The notes under the pieces: model-generated
The model's input: the letters and a program-made list of their open reading frames with translations, nothing else
Database searches by the model: none
Told to the model about the DNA's origin: nothing
Program-made: the position numbers and the translations under genes
In this document: piece after piece, positions 12,955-62,244 of the stretch
How the letters are laid out: the number at the start of each line of letters is the position of its first letter
Position numbering within the stretch: position 1 is the stretch's first letter
NCBI RefSeq assembly: GCF_044647545.1
Contig: NZ_CP172818.1
DNA from: Escherichia coli
GTDB lineage: Bacteria > Pseudomonadota > Gammaproteobacteria > Enterobacterales > Enterobacteriaceae
Reading direction: 5' to 3' (one strand)
Length of the DNA stretch: 64,000 nt

Positions 12955-12973
12955 TAGATAAATTTCAGGCAAC

Positions 12974-13052
12974 AAAAAACCCACCAACCTTGAACCGAAA
13001 TGGCGGGGTTGATGGGCTCCACAAAATGGGGACATCAAAGAAAAGCAGTGGC
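12974..13052 (-). ncRNA. rybB: sigmaE-dependent small RNA RybB
   Basis: Minus-strand sequence GCCACTGCTTTTCTTTGATGTCCCCATTTTGTGGAGCCCATCAACCCCGCCATTTCGGTTCAAGGTTGGTGGGTTTTTT matches RybB as recalled, with 3' terminator hairpin and U-run; rcdA-ybjL intergenic location. Confidence 0.85.
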
Positions 13053-29305: not shown

Positions 29306-29570
29306 CACAAAACAATACTTTATATTATAATAATAAAAATATATACTAATAATTAAAAAAATTAACATATACAACACATAATAAAAAAAAATAATAATTT
29401 AATATAAAAAAATAATTAAAAATTCTAAAAAACTTTAAATAATTTTAATAACAATCAAAATTATTAAATATTAAATCAAAAAAAAAAATTTTTAAAATAA
29501 AAAAAAAACAAATAAAAAAAATAATAATAAAACTATTAAATTATAAAAAAAAACAAATAATATTAAAAAT
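29306..29570. other. Extreme AT block with zero G over ~265 bp; non-enterobacterial composition
   Basis: Counted directly: no G and about 13 C between 29306 and 29570; A/T homopolymers and (aat)n-like tracts. Confidence 0.6.
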
Positions 29571-48179: not shown

Positions 48180-48209
48180 ATGCAGGCATAAAAATTGGGG
48201 GAGGTGCCT

Positions 48210-50486
48210 ATGCTCAATCAAGAACTGGAACTCAGTTTAAATATGGCTTTCGCCAGAGCGCGCGAGCACCGTCATGAGTTTATGACCGTCGAGCACTTGT
48301 TACTGGCGCTGCTCAGTAACCCATCTGCCCGGGAGGCGCTGGAAGCGTGTTCTGTGGATTTGGTTGCGCTCCGTCAGGAACTGGAAGCCTTTATTGAACA
48401 AACCACACCCGTTCTGCCTGCCAGTGAAGAGGAGCGCGACACACAGCCGACGCTGAGTTTTCAGCGTGTACTGCAACGTGCGGTCTTCCATGTCCAGTCC
48501 TCCGGTCGCAATGAGGTTACCGGTGCAAACGTTCTGGTCGCTATCTTTAGCGAACAGGAGTCGCAGGCGGCATATCTGTTGCGTAAACATGAAGTCAGCC
48601 GTCTCGATGTGGTGAACTTTATCTCTCATGGCACGCGTAAAGACGAGCCGACACAGTCTTCTGATCCTGGCAGCCAGCCAAACAGCGAAGAACAAGCTGG
48701 TGGGGAGGAACGTATGGAGAATTTCACGACGAACCTGAATCAGCTTGCGCGCGTGGGCGGAATCGACCCACTGATTGGTCGTGAGAAGGAGCTGGAACGT
48801 GCTATTCAGGTTCTCTGCCGTCGCCGTAAAAACAACCCGCTGCTGGTGGGGGAATCTGGTGTCGGTAAAACCGCGATTGCGGAAGGTCTTGCCTGGCGAA
48901 TTGTTCAGGGCGATGTGCCGGAAGTGATGGCTGACTGTACGATTTACTCTCTCGATATCGGTTCTCTGTTAGCGGGCACAAAATATCGCGGCGACTTTGA
49001 AAAACGTTTTAAAGCGTTGCTCAAGCAGCTGGAGCAGGACACTAACAGCATCCTGTTTATTGATGAGATCCACACCATTATCGGTGCGGGGGCAGCGTCT
49101 GGTGGTCAGGTTGATGCGGCTAACCTAATCAAACCGTTGCTCTCCAGCGGTAAAATTCGCGTAATTGGTTCGACAACCTATCAGGAGTTCAGCAACATTT
49201 TCGAGAAAGACCGTGCTCTGGCGCGTCGCTTCCAGAAAATTGATATTACTGAACCTTCGATCGAAGAAACTGTTCAAATCATCAATGGCCTGAAACCGAA
49301 GTACGAAGCGCACCATGACGTGCGTTATACCGCAAAAGCGGTGCGTGCAGCGGTAGAGCTGGCGGTGAAATACATTAACGATCGTCATCTGCCGGATAAA
49401 GCCATTGACGTTATCGACGAAGCGGGCGCTCGCGCACGCCTGATGCCGGTAAGCAAACGCAAGAAAACCGTTAATGTGGCGGATATTGAGTCTGTGGTGG
49501 CCCGTATTGCGCGCATTCCAGAGAAGAGTGTTTCGCAGAGTGACCGCGATACCCTGAAAAACCTCGGCGATCGCCTGAAAATGCTGGTCTTCGGTCAGGA
49601 TAAAGCCATTGAGGCGCTGACTGAAGCCATTAAGATGGCGCGTGCAGGTTTAGGTCACGAACATAAACCGGTCGGTTCGTTCCTGTTTGCCGGTCCTACC
49701 GGGGTCGGGAAAACAGAGGTGACGGTACAGCTTTCGAAAGCTTTGGGCATTGAGCTTCTGCGCTTTGATATGTCCGAGTATATGGAACGCCATACCGTCA
49801 GCCGTCTGATTGGTGCGCCTCCGGGATACGTTGGTTTTGATCAGGGGGGGCTGCTGACCGATGCGGTAATCAAGCATCCGCACGCGGTACTGCTGCTGGA
49901 CGAAATCGAGAAAGCGCATCCGGACGTGTTCAATATTCTGTTGCAGGTGATGGACAACGGTACGCTGACCGATAACAACGGACGCAAAGCGGACTTCCGT
50001 AACGTGGTATTGGTGATGACCACCAACGCCGGGGTACGAGAAACTGAGCGTAAATCGATTGGTCTTATCCACCAGGATAACAGCACCGATGCGATGGAAG
50101 AGATCAAGAAGATCTTTACACCGGAATTCCGTAACCGTCTCGACAACATTATCTGGTTTGATCATCTGTCAACCGACGTGATCCATCAGGTGGTGGATAA
50201 ATTCATCGTCGAGTTGCAGGTTCAGCTGGATCAGAAAGGTGTTTCTCTGGAAGTGAGCCAGGAAGCGCGTAACTGGCTGGCCGAGAAAGGTTACGACCGG
50301 GCAATGGGCGCTCGTCCGATGGCGCGTGTCATCCAGGACAACCTGAAAAAACCGCTCGCCAACGAACTGCTGTTTGGTTCGCTGGTGGACGGCGGTCAGG
50401 TCACCGTCGCGCTGGATAAAGAGAAAAATGAGCTGACTTACGGATTCCAGAGTGCACAAAAGCACAAGGCGGAAGCAGCGCATTAA
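48210..50486 (+). CDS. clpA: ATP-dependent Clp protease ATPase subunit ClpA
   Basis: 758 aa from ATG 48210 ([19 protein letters not shown]...); two AAA+ modules ([16 protein letters not shown]). Confidence 0.95.
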
Positions 50487-50738: not shown

Positions 50739-50826
50739 GTTCACTGCCGTACAGGCAGCTTAGAAATTCACTGGTAACATACTCCACCCGCCCACCATGT
50801 TCACTGCCGTACAGGCAGATAAAATG
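50739..50826 (+). CRISPR. Vestigial type I-F CRISPR array: 2 repeats (second degenerate at 3' end), 1 spacer of 32 bp; no cas genes nearby
   Basis: Repeat 1 at 50739-50766 GTTCACTGCCGTACAGGCAGCTTAGAAA (the I-F / Ypest-type repeat); spacer 50767-50798; repeat 2 at 50799-50826 GTTCACTGCCGTACAGGCAGataaaatg; AT-rich leader upstream; clpA-infA location is the known I-F CRISPR site in E. coli. Confidence 0.85.
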
Positions 50827-50870: not shown

Positions 50871-50958
50871 TGGCGGTGAGGGGGGGATTCGAACCCCCGA
50901 TACGTTGCCGTATACACACTTTCCAGGCGTGCTCCTTCAGCCACTCGGACACCTCACC
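50871..50958 (-). tRNA. serW: tRNA-Ser (anticodon GGA)
   Basis: Minus-strand 88-nt sequence GGTGAGGTGTCCGAGTGGCTGAAGGAGCACGCCTGGAAAGTG...GGGGTTCGAATCCCCCCCTCACCGCCA with cloverleaf features, long variable arm, 3' CCA. Confidence 0.93.
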
Positions 50959-58209: not shown

Positions 58210-61200
58210 TTGAGCCAGGAATACACTGAAGACAAAGAAGTCACATTGACAAAGTTAAGTAGCGGCCGCCGCCTTCTGGAGGCGTTGCTGATCCTTATTG
58301 TCCTGTTTGCCGTCTGGTTGATGGCTGCCTTACTAAGCTTTAACCCTTCGGACCCCAGCTGGTCGCAAACGGCCTGGCATGAACCTATCCATAATTTAGG
58401 TGGGATGCCCGGTGCATGGCTGGCAGATACGCTGTTCTTTATTTTTGGCGTGATGGCTTACACCATTCCCGTCATTATTGTCGGCGGTTGTTGGTTTGCC
58501 TGGCGTCATCAGTCCAGCGACGAATACATTGATTATTTTGCCGTTTCGCTACGCATCATTGGCGTTTTGGCGCTCATCCTTACCTCCTGTGGTCTGGCGG
58601 CAATCAACGCTGACGATATCTGGTATTTTGCCTCCGGTGGCGTCATTGGCAGCTTACTGAGCACTACGCTACAACCACTGCTACACAGTAGCGGGGGAAC
58701 TATTGCACTGCTCTGCGTTTGGGCAGCGGGCCTGACGCTGTTCACCGGTTGGTCATGGGTGACCATTGCTGAAAAACTCGGCGGCTGGATTTTAAATATT
58801 CTTACCTTCGCCAGTAATCGTACCCGTCGCGATGATACCTGGGTCGATGAAGATGAGTATGAAGACGACGAAGAATATGAAGAAGATGAAAGTCACGGCA
58901 AACAGCATGAATCACGCCGTGCCCGTATTCTTCGCGGCGCGCTAGCGCGTCGTAAACGGTTGGCGGAAAAATTCATTAATCCGATGGGGCGGCAAACAGA
59001 CGCTGCGTTGTTCTCCGGTAAGCGGATGGATGATGACGAAGAGATTACCTACACTGCACGCGGTGTGGCTGCCGACCCTGACGACGTCCTCTTTTCGGGC
59101 AATCGTGCAACGCAGCCAGAATATGACGAGTACGATCCATTATTAAACGGTGCGCCAATTACCGAACCTGTTGCTGTAGCAGCTGCTGCTACCACGGCGA
59201 CACAAAGCTGGGCTGCACCGGTTGAACCTGTGACTCAGACGCCGCCAGTTGCCTCTGTTGATGTTCCACCTACGCAACCTACAGTAGCCTGGCAGCCTGT
59301 ACCGGGGCCGCAAACAGGAGAACCGGTTATTGCACCTGCACCGGAAGGTTACCCACAGCAGTCACAATATGCGCAGCCTGCAGTGCAATATAATGAGCCG
59401 CTGCAACAACCTGTACAGCCACAGCAGCCGTATTATGCGCCTGCAGCGGAACAGCCTGTGCAACAACCTTACTACGCTCCTGCGCCGGAACAGTCTGCGC
59501 AACAGCCGTATTACGCCCCTGCGCCAGAACAATCGGTGGCAGGTAACGCCTGGCAAGCCGAAGAGCAGCAATCCACTTTTGCTCCACAGTCTACATACCA
59601 GACTGAGCAAACTTATCAGCAGCCAGCCGCTCAGGAGCCGTTGTACCAACAGCCGCAACCCGTTGAACAGCAGCCTGTTGTGGAGCCTGAACCCGTTGTA
59701 GAAGAGACAAAACCCGCGCGTCCGCCGCTTTACTATTTTGAAGAAGTGGAAGAGAAGCGTGCCCGTGAACGTGAACAACTTGCGGCCTGGTATCAACCGA
59801 TTCCTGAACCGGTTAAAGAACCAGAACCGATCAAATCTTCGCTGAAAGCACCTTCTGTTGCAGCAGTACCTCCAGTGGAAGCCGCTGCCGCTGTTTCCCC
59901 TCTGGCATCTGGCGTGAAAAAAGCGACACTGGCGACGGGGGCTGCCGCAACCGTTGCCGCGCCAGTCTTCAGTCTGGCAAATAGCGCTGGACCGCGTCCG
60001 CAGGTCAAAGAGGGGATTGGCCCGCAGTTGCCACGACCGAAACGCATCCGCGTGCCAACTCGTCGTGAACTGGCGTCTTACGGTATTAAGCTGCCCTCAC
60101 AGCGTGCGGCAGAAGAAAAAGCCCGTGAAGCTCAGCGCAATCAGTACGATTCCGGCGATCAGTATAACGATGATGAAATCGATGCGATGCAGCAGGATGA
60201 ACTGGCACGTCAGTTCGCCCAGACACAGCAGCAACGCTATGGCGAACAGTATCAACATGATGTGCCCGTGAACGCAGAAGATGCAGATGCTGCGGCAGAG
60301 GCTGAACTGGCTCGTCAGTTTGCTCAAACTCAACAACAACGTTATTCCGGCGAACAACCTGCTGGGGCGAATCCGTTCACTCTGGATGATTTTGAATTTT
60401 CGCCAATGAAAGCGTTGCTGGATGATGGTCCACACGAACCGCTGTTTACGCCAATTGTTGAACCTGTACAGCAGCCGCAACAACCGAAAGTTGCACCGCA
60501 GCAGCAATATCAGCAGCCGCAACAGCCGGTTGCACCACAGCCGCAATATCAGCAGCCGCAACAGCCGGTTGCGCCGCAGCCGCAGTATCAGCAGCCACAA
60601 CAACCGGTTGCGCCGCAGCCGCAATATCAGCAGCCACAACAGCCAGTTGCGCCGCAGCCGCAGTATCAGCAGCCACAACAGCCAGTTGCGCCACAGCCGC
60701 AGGATACCCTGCTTCATCCGCTGTTGATGCGTAATGGCGACAGCCGTCCGTTGCATAAACCGACGACGCCGCTGCCTTCTCTGGATTTGTTGACGCCGCC
60801 GCCGAGCGAAGTGGAGCCGGTAGATACCTTTGCTCTTGAACAAATGGCGCGTCTGGTGGAAGCGCGTCTGGCTGATTTCCGTATTAAAGCCGATGTCGTC
60901 AATTATTCTCCGGGGCCGGTTATCACTCGCTTTGAATTGAACCTGGCACCGGGCGTAAAAGCGGCGCGTATTTCTAACTTGTCACGTGACCTTGCCCGTT
61001 CACTTTCGACGGTGGCGGTGCGTGTCGTTGAAGTTATTCCTGGCAAACCCTATGTAGGTCTGGAGTTACCGAATAAAAAACGACAAACCGTTTATCTGCG
61101 TGAAGTTTTGGATAACGCCAAATTCCGCGATAATCCGTCGCCATTAACCGTGGTGCTGGGTAAAGATATCGCCGGTGAGCCGGTGGTTGCCGATCTGGCG

Positions 61201-62244
61201 AAAATGCCGCACTTGTTGGTTGCGGGGACTACCGGTTCCGGTAAGTCTGTCGGTGTGAACGCGATGATCCTGAGCATGCTTTATAAAGCACAGCCAGAAG
61301 ATGTTCGTTTCATCATGATCGACCCGAAAATGCTGGAGCTTTCGGTTTATGAAGGCATTCCACACCTGTTAACGGAAGTCGTTACTGATATGAAAGATGC
61401 CGCCAACGCGCTGCGCTGGTGTGTTAACGAGATGGAGCGTCGTTATAAACTGATGTCTGCGCTGGGTGTGCGTAATCTGGCGGGTTATAACGAAAAAATT
61501 GCTGAAGCCGATAGGATGATGCGTCCGATTCCAGACCCGTACTGGAAGCCGGGTGACAGTATGGATGCCCAGCATCCGGTGCTGAAAAAAGAACCGTACA
61601 TTGTGGTGTTGGTGGACGAATTTGCCGACCTGATGATGACGGTAGGTAAAAAAGTGGAAGAGCTGATAGCACGTCTGGCGCAAAAAGCCCGTGCCGCGGG
61701 TATCCACCTCGTACTGGCAACGCAGCGTCCATCGGTTGATGTTATTACTGGTCTGATTAAAGCGAATATTCCGACCCGTATCGCCTTTACCGTATCCAGT
61801 AAGATTGACTCACGTACCATTCTTGATCAGGCTGGCGCGGAATCACTGCTGGGTATGGGGGATATGCTTTACTCTGGGCCGAACTCCACGTTGCCGGTAC
61901 GTGTTCATGGTGCTTTTGTTCGCGATCAGGAAGTTCATGCCGTGGTGCAGGACTGGAAAGCGCGTGGCCGCCCACAGTATGTTGATGGCATCACCTCCGA
62001 CAGTGAAAGCGAAGGTGGCGCGGGCGGTTTCGATGGCGCTGAAGAACTGGATCCGTTGTTCGATCAGGCGGTACAGTTTGTCACTGAAAAACGCAAAGCA
62101 TCAATTTCTGGCGTACAGCGTCAGTTCCGCATTGGTTATAACCGTGCAGCGCGTATTATCGAACAGATGGAAGCGCAGGGGATTGTCAGCGAACAGGGGC
62201 ACAACGGTAATCGTGAAGTGCTGGCCCCACCGCCGTTTGACTAA
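58210..62244 (+). CDS. ftsK: DNA translocase FtsK (N-terminal membrane domain, Pro/Gln-rich linker, C-terminal AAA+ motor and gamma domain)
   Basis: 1344 aa from TTG 58210 ([23 protein letters not shown]...); Walker A GTTGSGKS; linker with tandem repeats. Confidence 0.94.
60487..60700 (+). repeat. In-frame 39-bp tandem repeat (about 5.5 copies) encoding [13 protein letters not shown] within the ftsK linker
   Basis: Direct reading: cagtatcagcagccacaacagccagttgcgccgcagccg-type units repeated with synonymous variation. Confidence 0.85.

Follow-up and report, generated by a model that had tools for sequence, protein, structure and literature searches.

In Escherichia coli, ftsK is an essential division gene. 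The linker of its product has been described as unstructured and PQ-rich (PMC5357621), and repeats of this gene have been used for the typing of Salmonella Enteritidis, where the MLVA locus SENTR2 is a 39-bp ftsK VNTR (PMC2430564). An 84-bp repeat indel has also been studied in Salmonella ftsK, and swapping its alleles gave no phenotype in the sole assay used (PMC6137255). For E. coli, two studies applying the generic MLVA scheme of Lindstedt et al. 2007 (PMC8143711, PMC5217547) include CVN001 among its loci, with a repeat length of 39, primers listed in Table 1 and alleles called by the formula (PS-250)/39 (PMC8143711). Published allele frequencies at CVN001 are 40% for allele 5, 40% for allele 6, 13% for allele 7, 5% for allele 8 and 1% for allele 4 (PMC5217547 Table 3).

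Here, we present an analysis of the ftsK gene found in a 64-kb window of E. coli DNA (the window being the whole stretch analysed), whose product is longer than that of strain K-12. Very likely, this feature is the familiar variation in length of the disordered, Pro/Gln-rich FtsK linker, namely a VNTR, probably near-neutral, generated by slippage or unequal recombination. The finding is already known, as a documented typing VNTR in a well-studied gene, and has little discovery value in itself: it re-identifies CVN001 and tells us no more about the strain than that it differs from K-12.

Gene identity and protein architecture

The gene and the main features of its product were delineated as follows.

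58210..62244, + strand: ftsK coding sequence, TTG start, 1344 aa (ORF list), with WP_400165222.1 as the exact protein
58267..58782, + strand: N-terminal membrane domain FtsK_4TM, aa 20-191 (Pfam PF13491, E = 5e-42)
58783..60771, + strand: linker, aa 192-854, corresponding to the gap between the Pfam matches of the 4TM and alpha domains
58859..58890, + strand: acidic GAA/GAT-rich run (Tandem Repeats Finder, period 9, 3.6 copies)
59422..59538, + strand: repeat array R1, three 39-bp (13-codon) units, aa 405-443
60466..60702, + strand: repeat array R2, six units, aa 753-831, equivalent to MLVA locus CVN001
60772..62226, + strand: C-terminal motor, with the alpha (aa 855-955), FtsK_SpoIIIE ATPase (aa 963-1176) and gamma (aa 1279-1339) domains

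The product matched the NCBIfam equivalog NF007615 ('DNA translocase FtsK') with 3066 bits for a cut-off of 1566, residues 1-1344 falling on profile positions 1-1355. The motor domains (Pfam PF17854, PF01580 and PF09397) all scored far over their cut-offs, and the Walker A motif GTTGSGKS is present in the translation. The ORF products flanking the gene match the order lrp-ftsK-lolA-rarA, which is likewise that of the K-12 and strain 142 neighbours. A sequence-only reading of the window had named the gene ftsK and placed in-frame repeats within its Pro/Gln-rich linker; the 4TM, alpha, ATPase and gamma domains, the end-to-end equivalog match, the conserved gene order and the parsing of the repeats bear out both points. 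According to the translation, the linker is rich in Pro, Gln, Glu and Ala, is without any Pfam domain and encloses both arrays. An Rfam scan of the whole 64-kb window returned no RNA element in ftsK. Four ORFs in other frames over the repeats, at 59330..59701 (+), 59362..59796 (-), 60097..60843 (-) and 60422..60727 (+), were not accepted as genes: CAG/CCG-rich repeats leave such frames free of stops as a by-product, and the ftsK frame is backed end to end by NF007615.

The K-12 MG1655 gene (NC_000913.3, b0890, 933224..937213, NP_415410.1) also begins with TTG, and measures 3990 bp for 1329 aa. Over the 3990 aligned bases, 94 substitutions separate the two genes (97.6% DNA identity), translating into 10 residue substitutions: I6T, N227S, A354T, P442S, G593A, S723T and four located in R2. 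From alignment column 901 through the C terminus the protein is identical to that of K-12, and this identity over nearly all of the motor suggests that DNA translocation and XerCD-dif activation would be conserved. The acidic run holds one Glu codon more than K-12, aligned at 58879-58881, and this extra codon is common to the alleles of the ST648 clade.

Two in-frame repeat arrays in the linker

Array R1 was divided by hand into units at 59422-59460, 59461-59499 and 59500-59538, and was delimited by Tandem Repeats Finder at 59428-59531 (period 39, 2.7 copies, 80% matches, score 124), confirming the three copies previously read at about 59420-59540. For R2, the same program reported 60469-60701 (period 39, 5.9 copies, 91% matches, score 341). 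The first R2 unit is degenerate and reaches 42 bp owing to an extra AAA inside it, and the other five, of 39 bp each, encode one identical 13-residue peptide; the alpha domain begins 24 aa after the end of the array. This array had been read as about 5.5 copies of a 39-bp unit at 60487-60700, which is essentially right, although its true start lies about 20 bp earlier and its units number six. As the 64-kb window holds no other high-scoring coding tandem repeats, R1 and R2 stand well beyond chance. With a unit of 13 codons, each gain or loss preserves the reading frame.

The primers published for CVN001 frame the second array.

60356..60374, + strand: CVN001 forward primer site, 1 mismatch, single match in the window (chance expectation 0)
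60784..60803, - strand: CVN001 reverse primer site, 2 mismatches, unique match (chance expectation about 0)

Amplified in silico, the product measures 448 bp, where 484 bp would be expected for ST648 relatives and 445 bp for K-12. From (448-250)/39 = 5.08, the window has allele 5, which the formula returns for K-12 as well, with alleles 2 to 8 for the others examined. With its 39-bp tandem unit, its flanking published primers and its whole-unit copy variation between strains, R2 is the published MLVA locus CVN001. The numbering of this scheme skips the degenerate first unit, so that 6, 7, 8 and 5 R2 units correspond to alleles 5, 6, 7 and 4.

The lengths given earlier, 1344 aa here and 1329 aa for K-12 (NC_000913.3), are both correct. 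Of the 15 additional residues, 13 come from one R1 unit, one from the Glu codon of the acidic run and one from an AAA (Lys) codon private to this strain at 60487-60489. Repeat-number polymorphism is therefore the main cause of the difference, as had been proposed, but its source is R1, with 3 units here for 2 in K-12, and not the conspicuous R2, whose unit count equals that of K-12. This R1 difference is simply vertical divergence between phylogroups.

Length variation across complete genomes

Population samples were drawn as 60 evenly spaced genomes among 5,426 complete E. coli genomes. Whole-gene megablast yielded one continuous match in only 1,401 of the 5,426 genomes, as the repeats split the alignments and made lengths unreadable; array lengths were instead taken from flank-only queries as the joined span. 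Across the 60 genomes, the ftsK span took 10 in-frame values ranging from 3951 to 4158 bp, mostly in 39-bp steps, for proteins of 1316 to 1385 aa, and strain NC101 encodes a FtsK of 1303 aa. R1 numbered 2 units in 21 of the 60 genomes, 3 in 23 and 4 in 16, and was reduced to a single unit in 2018-06-4CC; this whole-unit copy-number variation between strains makes R1 a VNTR. R2 was composed of 5, 6, 7 and 8 units in 2, 23, 22 and 7 of 59 genomes, with a non-integral length in 5 others, and its range extended from 3 to 9 units among 14 alleles compared. The window strain is modal at both arrays (R1 = 3 units, R2 = 6 units, CVN001 allele 5). Part-unit events were encountered elsewhere, with 15-nt YQQPQ fragments in K-15KW01 and N1. 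The ORF was intact in all 13 good-quality alleles examined (1303-1385 aa), strain BL12 (3991-bp span) having been left out for ftsK frameshifts typical of an unpolished assembly. The whole of this length variation spans only ~6% of the protein and ~12% of the linker, and no sign of copy-number compensation between R1 and R2 was detected among the 14 alleles.

The K-12 length of 3990 bp was found in only 13 of the 60 sampled genomes and the NCBIfam model has 1355 positions; hence 1329 aa is no meaningful 'normal' for E. coli FtsK and is not to serve as its 'reference length'. An excess of 15 residues over K-12 is ordinary, because the copy number of the two in-frame 39-base repeats differs routinely between strains. 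At these arrays, assemblies built from short reads and comparisons of annotations can also be misleading.

A private contraction within an ST648-like clade

Outside the repeats, ftsK is 100% identical to that of ST648-type genomes, and the upstream 25 kb are 99.8% identical to them. Judged by this identity, the strain is a member of an ST648-like clade and, given also its 94 ftsK substitutions, is not MG1655, as the earlier reading had suspected. The clade allele measures 4071 bp (e.g. IMT16316, WP_022645455.1, 1356 aa), and all but one of the 60 best matches to the flanks have this length. Relative to it, a 39-bp block (ATTGCA...CAACCA) spanning R2 units 0 and 1 is replaced by AAA, for a net change of -36 bp; within 60466-60510 the window allele reads CCGAAAGTT and the clade allele CCGATTGCA.... 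Over the gene plus 500 bp on each side, this replacement and one SNP are the only differences:

60487..60489, + strand: private AAA (Lys) codon at the contraction junction, reconstructed against the ST648-clade allele
60567, + strand: synonymous A>G, CCA to CCG (Pro), in R2 unit 3, relative to the ST648-clade allele

Strain 142 carries the clade allele minus a different and precise 39-bp unit, and the window strain and strain 142 are thus two independent recent contractions inside one clade. The allele places the strain within the ST648-like clade, and its private contraction might be used to mark the strain.

A simple deletion between units does not yield the AAA junction, which needs either an extra mutation or an assembly error. 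We evaluated the second option, by which the AAA replacement and the 60567 SNP would be assembly or sequencing artefacts and the strain would really carry the 4071-bp clade allele. Such an error would fit with the failure of any clean deletion of the clade allele to yield the junction, with the absence of this junction from all 5,426 complete genomes (best match at 96% with a 3-bp gap), with the singleton status of WP_400165222.1 in a collection of 15 billion proteins, and with the collapse-prone nature of ~270-bp arrays in short-read assemblies. However, the change is in-frame within a gene otherwise error-free, and the contig on record for this allele is 4.5 Mb long, suggesting a long-read or hybrid assembly. 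In addition, the contraction of strain 142, in the same clade, is independent and real, and part-unit changes occur in other natural alleles. On balance, an artefact appears improbable.

Origin and consequences of the length polymorphism

Under the VNTR reading that we favour, near-identical neighbouring units would misalign, through replication slippage or unequal recombination, and whole units, occasionally part-units, would be added or removed. Such a mechanism is consistent with the window strain and strain 142 each being deprived of a different 39-bp block of the clade allele, and one recent, imprecise contraction of R2 would separate the window strain from its nearest relatives. The linker acts as a long flexible tether from the membrane/divisome anchor to the hexameric motor, and in a tether of ~660 residues the gain or loss of one unit or a few appears to be tolerated. 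Linker-length alleles would then drift in the population, making one of the arrays usable as the MLVA marker CVN001, and the VNTR is probably near-neutral. The suggestion of the sequence-only reading that the length change could affect how the membrane domain is coupled to the motor found no support: the linker effects reported in the review PMC5357621 (citing Bigot 2004 and Dubarry 2010) concern large deletions, and the Salmonella swap was without phenotype in its single assay.

The repeat unit itself is conserved. Across 37 distinct 13-aa units, 11 of the 25 possible synonymous changes occurred, but only 8 of the 92 possible non-synonymous ones (Fisher p = 1.3e-4), indicating that the unit is under purifying selection. 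A cross-genus DNA pattern scan recovered the same unit at the same FtsK position in Salmonella arizonae, Citrobacter species and a cryptic Escherichia; two unrelated MAG proteins were set aside, each with a single chance-like match. This conservation at the peptide level and presence across genera suggest that the R2 array is more than an arbitrary spacer and that its copy number could matter subtly, a modest hint of a sequence-specific role of the array.

Copy number might accordingly be tuned by selection, the length of the linker or the number of 13-residue motifs adjusting motor-divisome coupling, with alleles selected by lineage or niche. Beyond the purifying selection on a peptide common to several genera, this proposal would draw on the impairment of FtsK by large linker deletions and the contacts of linker parts with FtsQ, FtsL, FtsI and FtsZ (PMC5357621), as well as on the clustering of copy numbers (~6-8 for R2, 2-4 for R1) with no limitless drift. 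By contrast, the 14 alleles give no sign of compensation between the two arrays, and close relatives differ in copy number, as do the window strain and strain 142 from the other ST648-clade genomes, and as does SX4, a strain with only 2 R1 units between flanks 100% identical to those of the window. The lack of phenotype in the Salmonella allele swap and the narrow range of lengths, relative to both protein and linker, point in the same direction, and we regard adaptive tuning as unlikely. A related and equally doubtful possibility is that R2 forms a conserved multivalent motif module just before the motor, whose copy number (3-9) would tune divisome engagement or motor reach; CVN001 alleles would in that case constitute a natural allelic series for linker function, and the Lys insertion a minor curiosity.

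One could also imagine that the length difference was imported, a divergent ftsK segment of another lineage having been acquired through homologous recombination, as ftsK alleles of different phylogroups are 2-3% apart and E. coli recombines commonly. With respect to the strain's own clade, this is effectively refuted by identical flanks: the 4,035 bp of the gene and the 500 bp to either side match the clade allele besides the 39-bp block and the SNP, and the upstream 25 kb follow the same ST648-type genomes, making this scenario extremely improbable. Phase variation was rejected, the 39-bp unit being a multiple of three that generates no frameshift or on/off switch.

Comparison with known systems

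The arrays share with phase-variable contingency loci coding tandem repeats and copy change by misalignment; such loci, however, shift their reading frame or switch on and off, whereas all good-quality ftsK alleles are intact. Compared to K-12 FtsK, the window protein has the same TTG start, 4TM, linker and alpha/beta/gamma architecture and R2 unit count, but differs by its third R1 unit, its additional Glu codon and its Lys insertion. With the ST648-clade allele of IMT16316, everything is identical except the 39-bp block reduced to AAA and the synonymous change at 60567. In Salmonella, SENTR2 is similarly a 39-bp in-frame repeat at the same place in the orthologous gene, and the repeat unit was found at the equivalent site in S. 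enterica subsp. arizonae; it differs from R2 by its genus and its more numerous copies (9.3), and it is for the Salmonella indel that an allele swap was carried out. Finally, nothing substantive separates R2 from CVN001: the unit is of 39 bp, the primers (with 1 and 2 mismatches) flank 60466-60702, the allele of the strain exceeds a whole-unit allele 5 by 3 bp, and the complete genomes agree with the published data in both the range and the frequencies of alleles.

Architecture of ftsK and repeat arrays of its linker

The ftsK gene of the window lies between lrp (upstream) and lolA (downstream), in the same order as in K-12, and its product is matched over residues 1-1344 by the NCBIfam equivalog NF007615 (3066 bits, cut-off 1566). 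Its linker, reported as unstructured (PMC5357621), carries two 39-bp (13-codon) tandem arrays, hereafter R1 and R2.

Features of ftsK (TRF, Tandem Repeats Finder)
58210..62244, + strand: ftsK ORF, TTG start, 1344 aa
aa 20-191, + strand: FtsK_4TM (Pfam)
aa 192-854 (nt 58783-60771), + strand: Pro/Gln/Glu/Ala-rich linker, domain-free between Pfam matches
58859-58890, + strand: short acidic run, period 9 (TRF)
59428-59531, + strand: R1, period 39, 2.7 copies, 80% matches, score 124 (TRF)
60469-60701, + strand: R2, period 39, 5.9 copies, 91% matches, score 341 (TRF)
aa 855-955, + strand: FtsK_alpha (Pfam)
aa 963-1176, + strand: FtsK_SpoIIIE (Pfam)
aa 1279-1339, + strand: FtsK_gamma (Pfam)

Parsed in frame, R1 comprises three units (59422-59538) and R2 six (60466-60702), the first of which is degenerate (42 bp, 14 residues) while the remaining five differ only synonymously and encode one common 13-aa peptide. 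The repeats and coordinates described by an initial sequence-only reading were essentially right, and Tandem Repeats Finder detected no other coding tandem repeat scoring >60 in the 64-kb window. The linker also holds an imperfect duplication (~60199-60249 and 60296-60349, copies ~100 bp apart, encoding ...(G/SG)EQ), which is shared with K-12 and is thus old, fixed and outside the polymorphism.

Comparison with K-12

The MG1655 gene (NC_000913.3 933224..937213; 3990 bp, TTG start) encodes 1329 aa, the length that the sequence-only reading had given, and alignment with the MG1655 protein upheld the 15-residue excess of the 1344-aa window ORF. Thirteen of these residues form an extra R1 unit (placed by the aligner at 59456-59494; three units versus two in K-12), and the others correspond to a Glu codon added in the acidic run (58879-58881) and a Lys codon, AAA (60487-60489), inside the first R2 unit. 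The proposal that repeat-number polymorphism explains the length gap was therefore right in its idea, through the R1 unit, but wrongly credited the large array R2, whose unit number is equal in both strains. With 94 substitutions over 3990 aligned ftsK bases, the strain is clearly not MG1655, as had also been proposed.

Strain background and recent contraction of R2

The 25 kb upstream (30000-54999) shared 99.8% identity with genomes including IMT16316, Ecol_881, ECONIH1 and strain 'ST648', and the non-repeat parts of ftsK were 100% identical to this set. Among the best 60 flank matches, the ftsK span was 4071 bp in 59 and 4032 bp in one (strain 142, Switzerland). Direct reconstruction derived the window gene from the IMT16316 allele with just two changes: replacement by AAA of the 39-bp block ATTGCACCGCAGCAACAGTATCAGCAGCCGCAGCAACCA, which straddles the junction between R2 units 0 and 1 (net -36 bp), and a synonymous A>G at 60567; the rest of ftsK and 500 bp on either side were identical. 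The strain 142 gene is the IMT16316 allele minus another, precise 39-bp unit. As the two strains lost different blocks from one clade allele, R2 appears to have contracted twice independently inside this clade, direct evidence pointing to its instability on a short time scale.

The exact window protein is recorded in NCBI as WP_400165222.1, a singleton from a single 4.5-Mb contig, and the AAA junction was absent from the complete genomes (n=5,426; best junction match 96% with a 3-bp gap). A 36-bp deletion from the clade allele predicts CCGACAGTT, and not the CCGAAAGTT of the window, so that AAA did not arise by one clean deletion from this allele; the alternatives are a deletion accompanied by a point change, a short fill-in, whether templated or untemplated, and an error of assembly. 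Its consequence is a single added Lys in the degenerate first unit.

Population distribution of array lengths

Since repeats broke up whole-gene BLAST matches, array lengths were measured as the span of the joined match obtained with concatenated flanks only as queries. Whole genes were sampled from 60 genomes spaced evenly along the ranked list of all 5,426.

Distribution of ftsK spans and array sizes in the genome sample
ftsK span (/60): 3951 bp, 1; 3990 bp, 13; 3991 bp, 1 (frameshifted, poor assembly); 4020 bp, 1; 4029 bp, 10; 4044 bp, 2; 4068 bp, 13; 4071 bp, 1; 4107 bp, 16; 4149 bp, 1; 4158 bp, 1
R1 units (/60): 2, 21; 3, 23; 4, 16
R2 units (/59): 5, 2; 6, 23; 7, 22; 8, 7; non-integral, 5

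With the NC101 family (3912 bp), FtsK ranged from 1303 to 1385 aa; genes of K-12 length are in the minority, and the window falls in the largest class of each array (R1 = 3, R2 = 6). Fourteen fully read alleles extended the ranges to 1-4 units for R1 and 3-9 for R2, and included part-unit variants, for example with 15-nt YQQPQ fragments; every good-quality allele among them kept an intact ORF. The 3991-bp span belongs to E. coli BL12 (L014, NZ_CP079780.1, 201-4191), where frameshifts split ftsK into several annotated fragments and likewise affect lolA; despite its 'complete' status, the genome looks like a long-read assembly that was left unpolished, and the frameshifts do not look biological. 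E. coli SX4 (H184, NZ_CP142398.1, 1850630-1851328) matches the window at 100% in the R1 flanks, yet has only two R1 units (span of 699 bp versus 738 bp); copy number may have changed recently between these close alleles too, here in the small array.

Conservation of the 13-residue unit

Scanning one genome per species with a degenerate DNA pattern of the R2 unit revealed 39-bp-spaced arrays in Escherichia, Salmonella enterica subsp. arizonae, Citrobacter amalonaticus, C. sedlakii and a Citrobacter MAG, each array being in an FtsK frame and directly N-terminal of a conserved ...[ST]L[LI]... segment. Two MAGs, one of Phycisphaeraceae (L015, 2743-2775; open frame ≥1974 aa) and one of Bacteroidales (L017, 10302-10334), each encode an unrelated protein with one exact 11-residue unit peptide in a PQ-rich stretch; in sequence of such low complexity, both matches are most likely due to chance.

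In the 37 distinct 39-nt units of the 14 E. coli alleles, the changes seen were 11 of the 25 possible synonymous ones versus 8 of the 92 possible non-synonymous ones (Fisher p = 1.3e-4), and for transitions alone 10/13 versus 3/26 (p = 9e-5). This synonymous excess and the nearly invariant YQQPQQP half indicate that the unit peptide is constrained. Constraint at the peptide level is expected of a coding region, but it also implies that the R2 array is no arbitrary filler. In the cryptic-clade Escherichia sp. MOD1-EC7003 (L023, ~8726), R2 consists mostly of one variant 13-aa unit; the apparent homogenisation of the array to a variant specific to its lineage suggests that the units evolve in concert.

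Mechanism and functional meaning of length variation

Nearly identical neighbouring 39-bp units would misalign, through replication slippage or unequal recombination, and thereby gain or lose whole units; judging by this pattern and by what is generally known of unstable tandem repeats, whole-unit gains and losses would be the signature of such misalignment. The arrays very probably form an ordinary VNTR whose variation is nearly neutral within bounds, because the natural range is small (82 aa, ~12% of the linker), copy number differs among close relatives, and R1 and R2 counts showed no compensation among the 14 alleles. A quantitative tuning of FtsK by copy number seems improbable. According to PMC5357621 (citing Bigot 2004, Dubarry 2010), FtsK requires its linker to be fully active, some linker segments make contact with FtsQ, FtsL, FtsI and FtsZ, and large deletions cause filamentation, but we found no literature support for an effect of one or a few units. 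The suggestion that this length change affects coupling of the membrane domain to the motor is likewise unsupported, the published effects being those of large deletions. Phase variation is ruled out, as 39 is a multiple of three and the frame is always kept.

Other features of the window

12971-13049, - strand: RybB small RNA, full-length (Rfam, 104 bits; gathering score 40)
29467-29569: A-rich low-complexity tandem, 19 bp, 5.6 copies, 63% matches; a probable AT-rich tract between genes
50739-50819: orphan type I-F CRISPR remnant
50871-50958, - strand: tRNA-Ser, anticodon GGA (ARAGORN; Rfam tRNA 53.8 bits), the only tRNA in the window

The CRISPR remnant, located just beyond the end of a large ORF (48195..50486) and adjoining tRNA-Ser(GGA), comprises a complete repeat, GTTCACTGCCGTACAGGCAGCTTAGAAA (Rfam CRISPR-DR4, 50.1 bits), a spacer of 32 nt and, at 50799-50819, a second repeat that is truncated. 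No cas-sized ORF was found nearby, and it may be akin to the CRISPR3-4 remnant present in E. coli strains without I-F cas genes.

Correspondence with known typing loci

The sequence-only observation is confirmed and its interpretation partly supported, and the feature itself is already known, both as part of the FtsK linker and as the typing loci CVN001 and SENTR2. CVN001, a locus with a 39-bp repeat in the generic E. coli MLVA scheme (Lindstedt et al. 2007), is scored as (product size - 250)/39 with primers AACCGGCTGGGGCGAATCC and GGCGGCGGTGTCAGCAAATC (PMC8143711), whose sites bracket R2.

60356-60374, + strand: CVN001 primer site, 1 mismatch, single match in the window
60784-60803, - strand: CVN001 primer site, 2 mismatches, single match in the window

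The in-silico amplicon of 448 bp (5.08) assigns allele 5 to the window, against 445 bp (5.00) for K-12 and 484 bp (6.00) for IMT16316. Alleles 4/5/6/7/8 represented 1/40/40/13/5% of a Swedish survey (PMC5217547 Table 3), in agreement with our genome sample when the degenerate first unit goes uncounted. In Salmonella, swapping an 84-bp ftsK repeat indel between two strains produced no change in the assay used (PMC6137255), and SENTR2 of Salmonella Enteritidis is the same kind of locus, with 9.3 copies of a 39-bp repeat in ftsK (PMC2430564).
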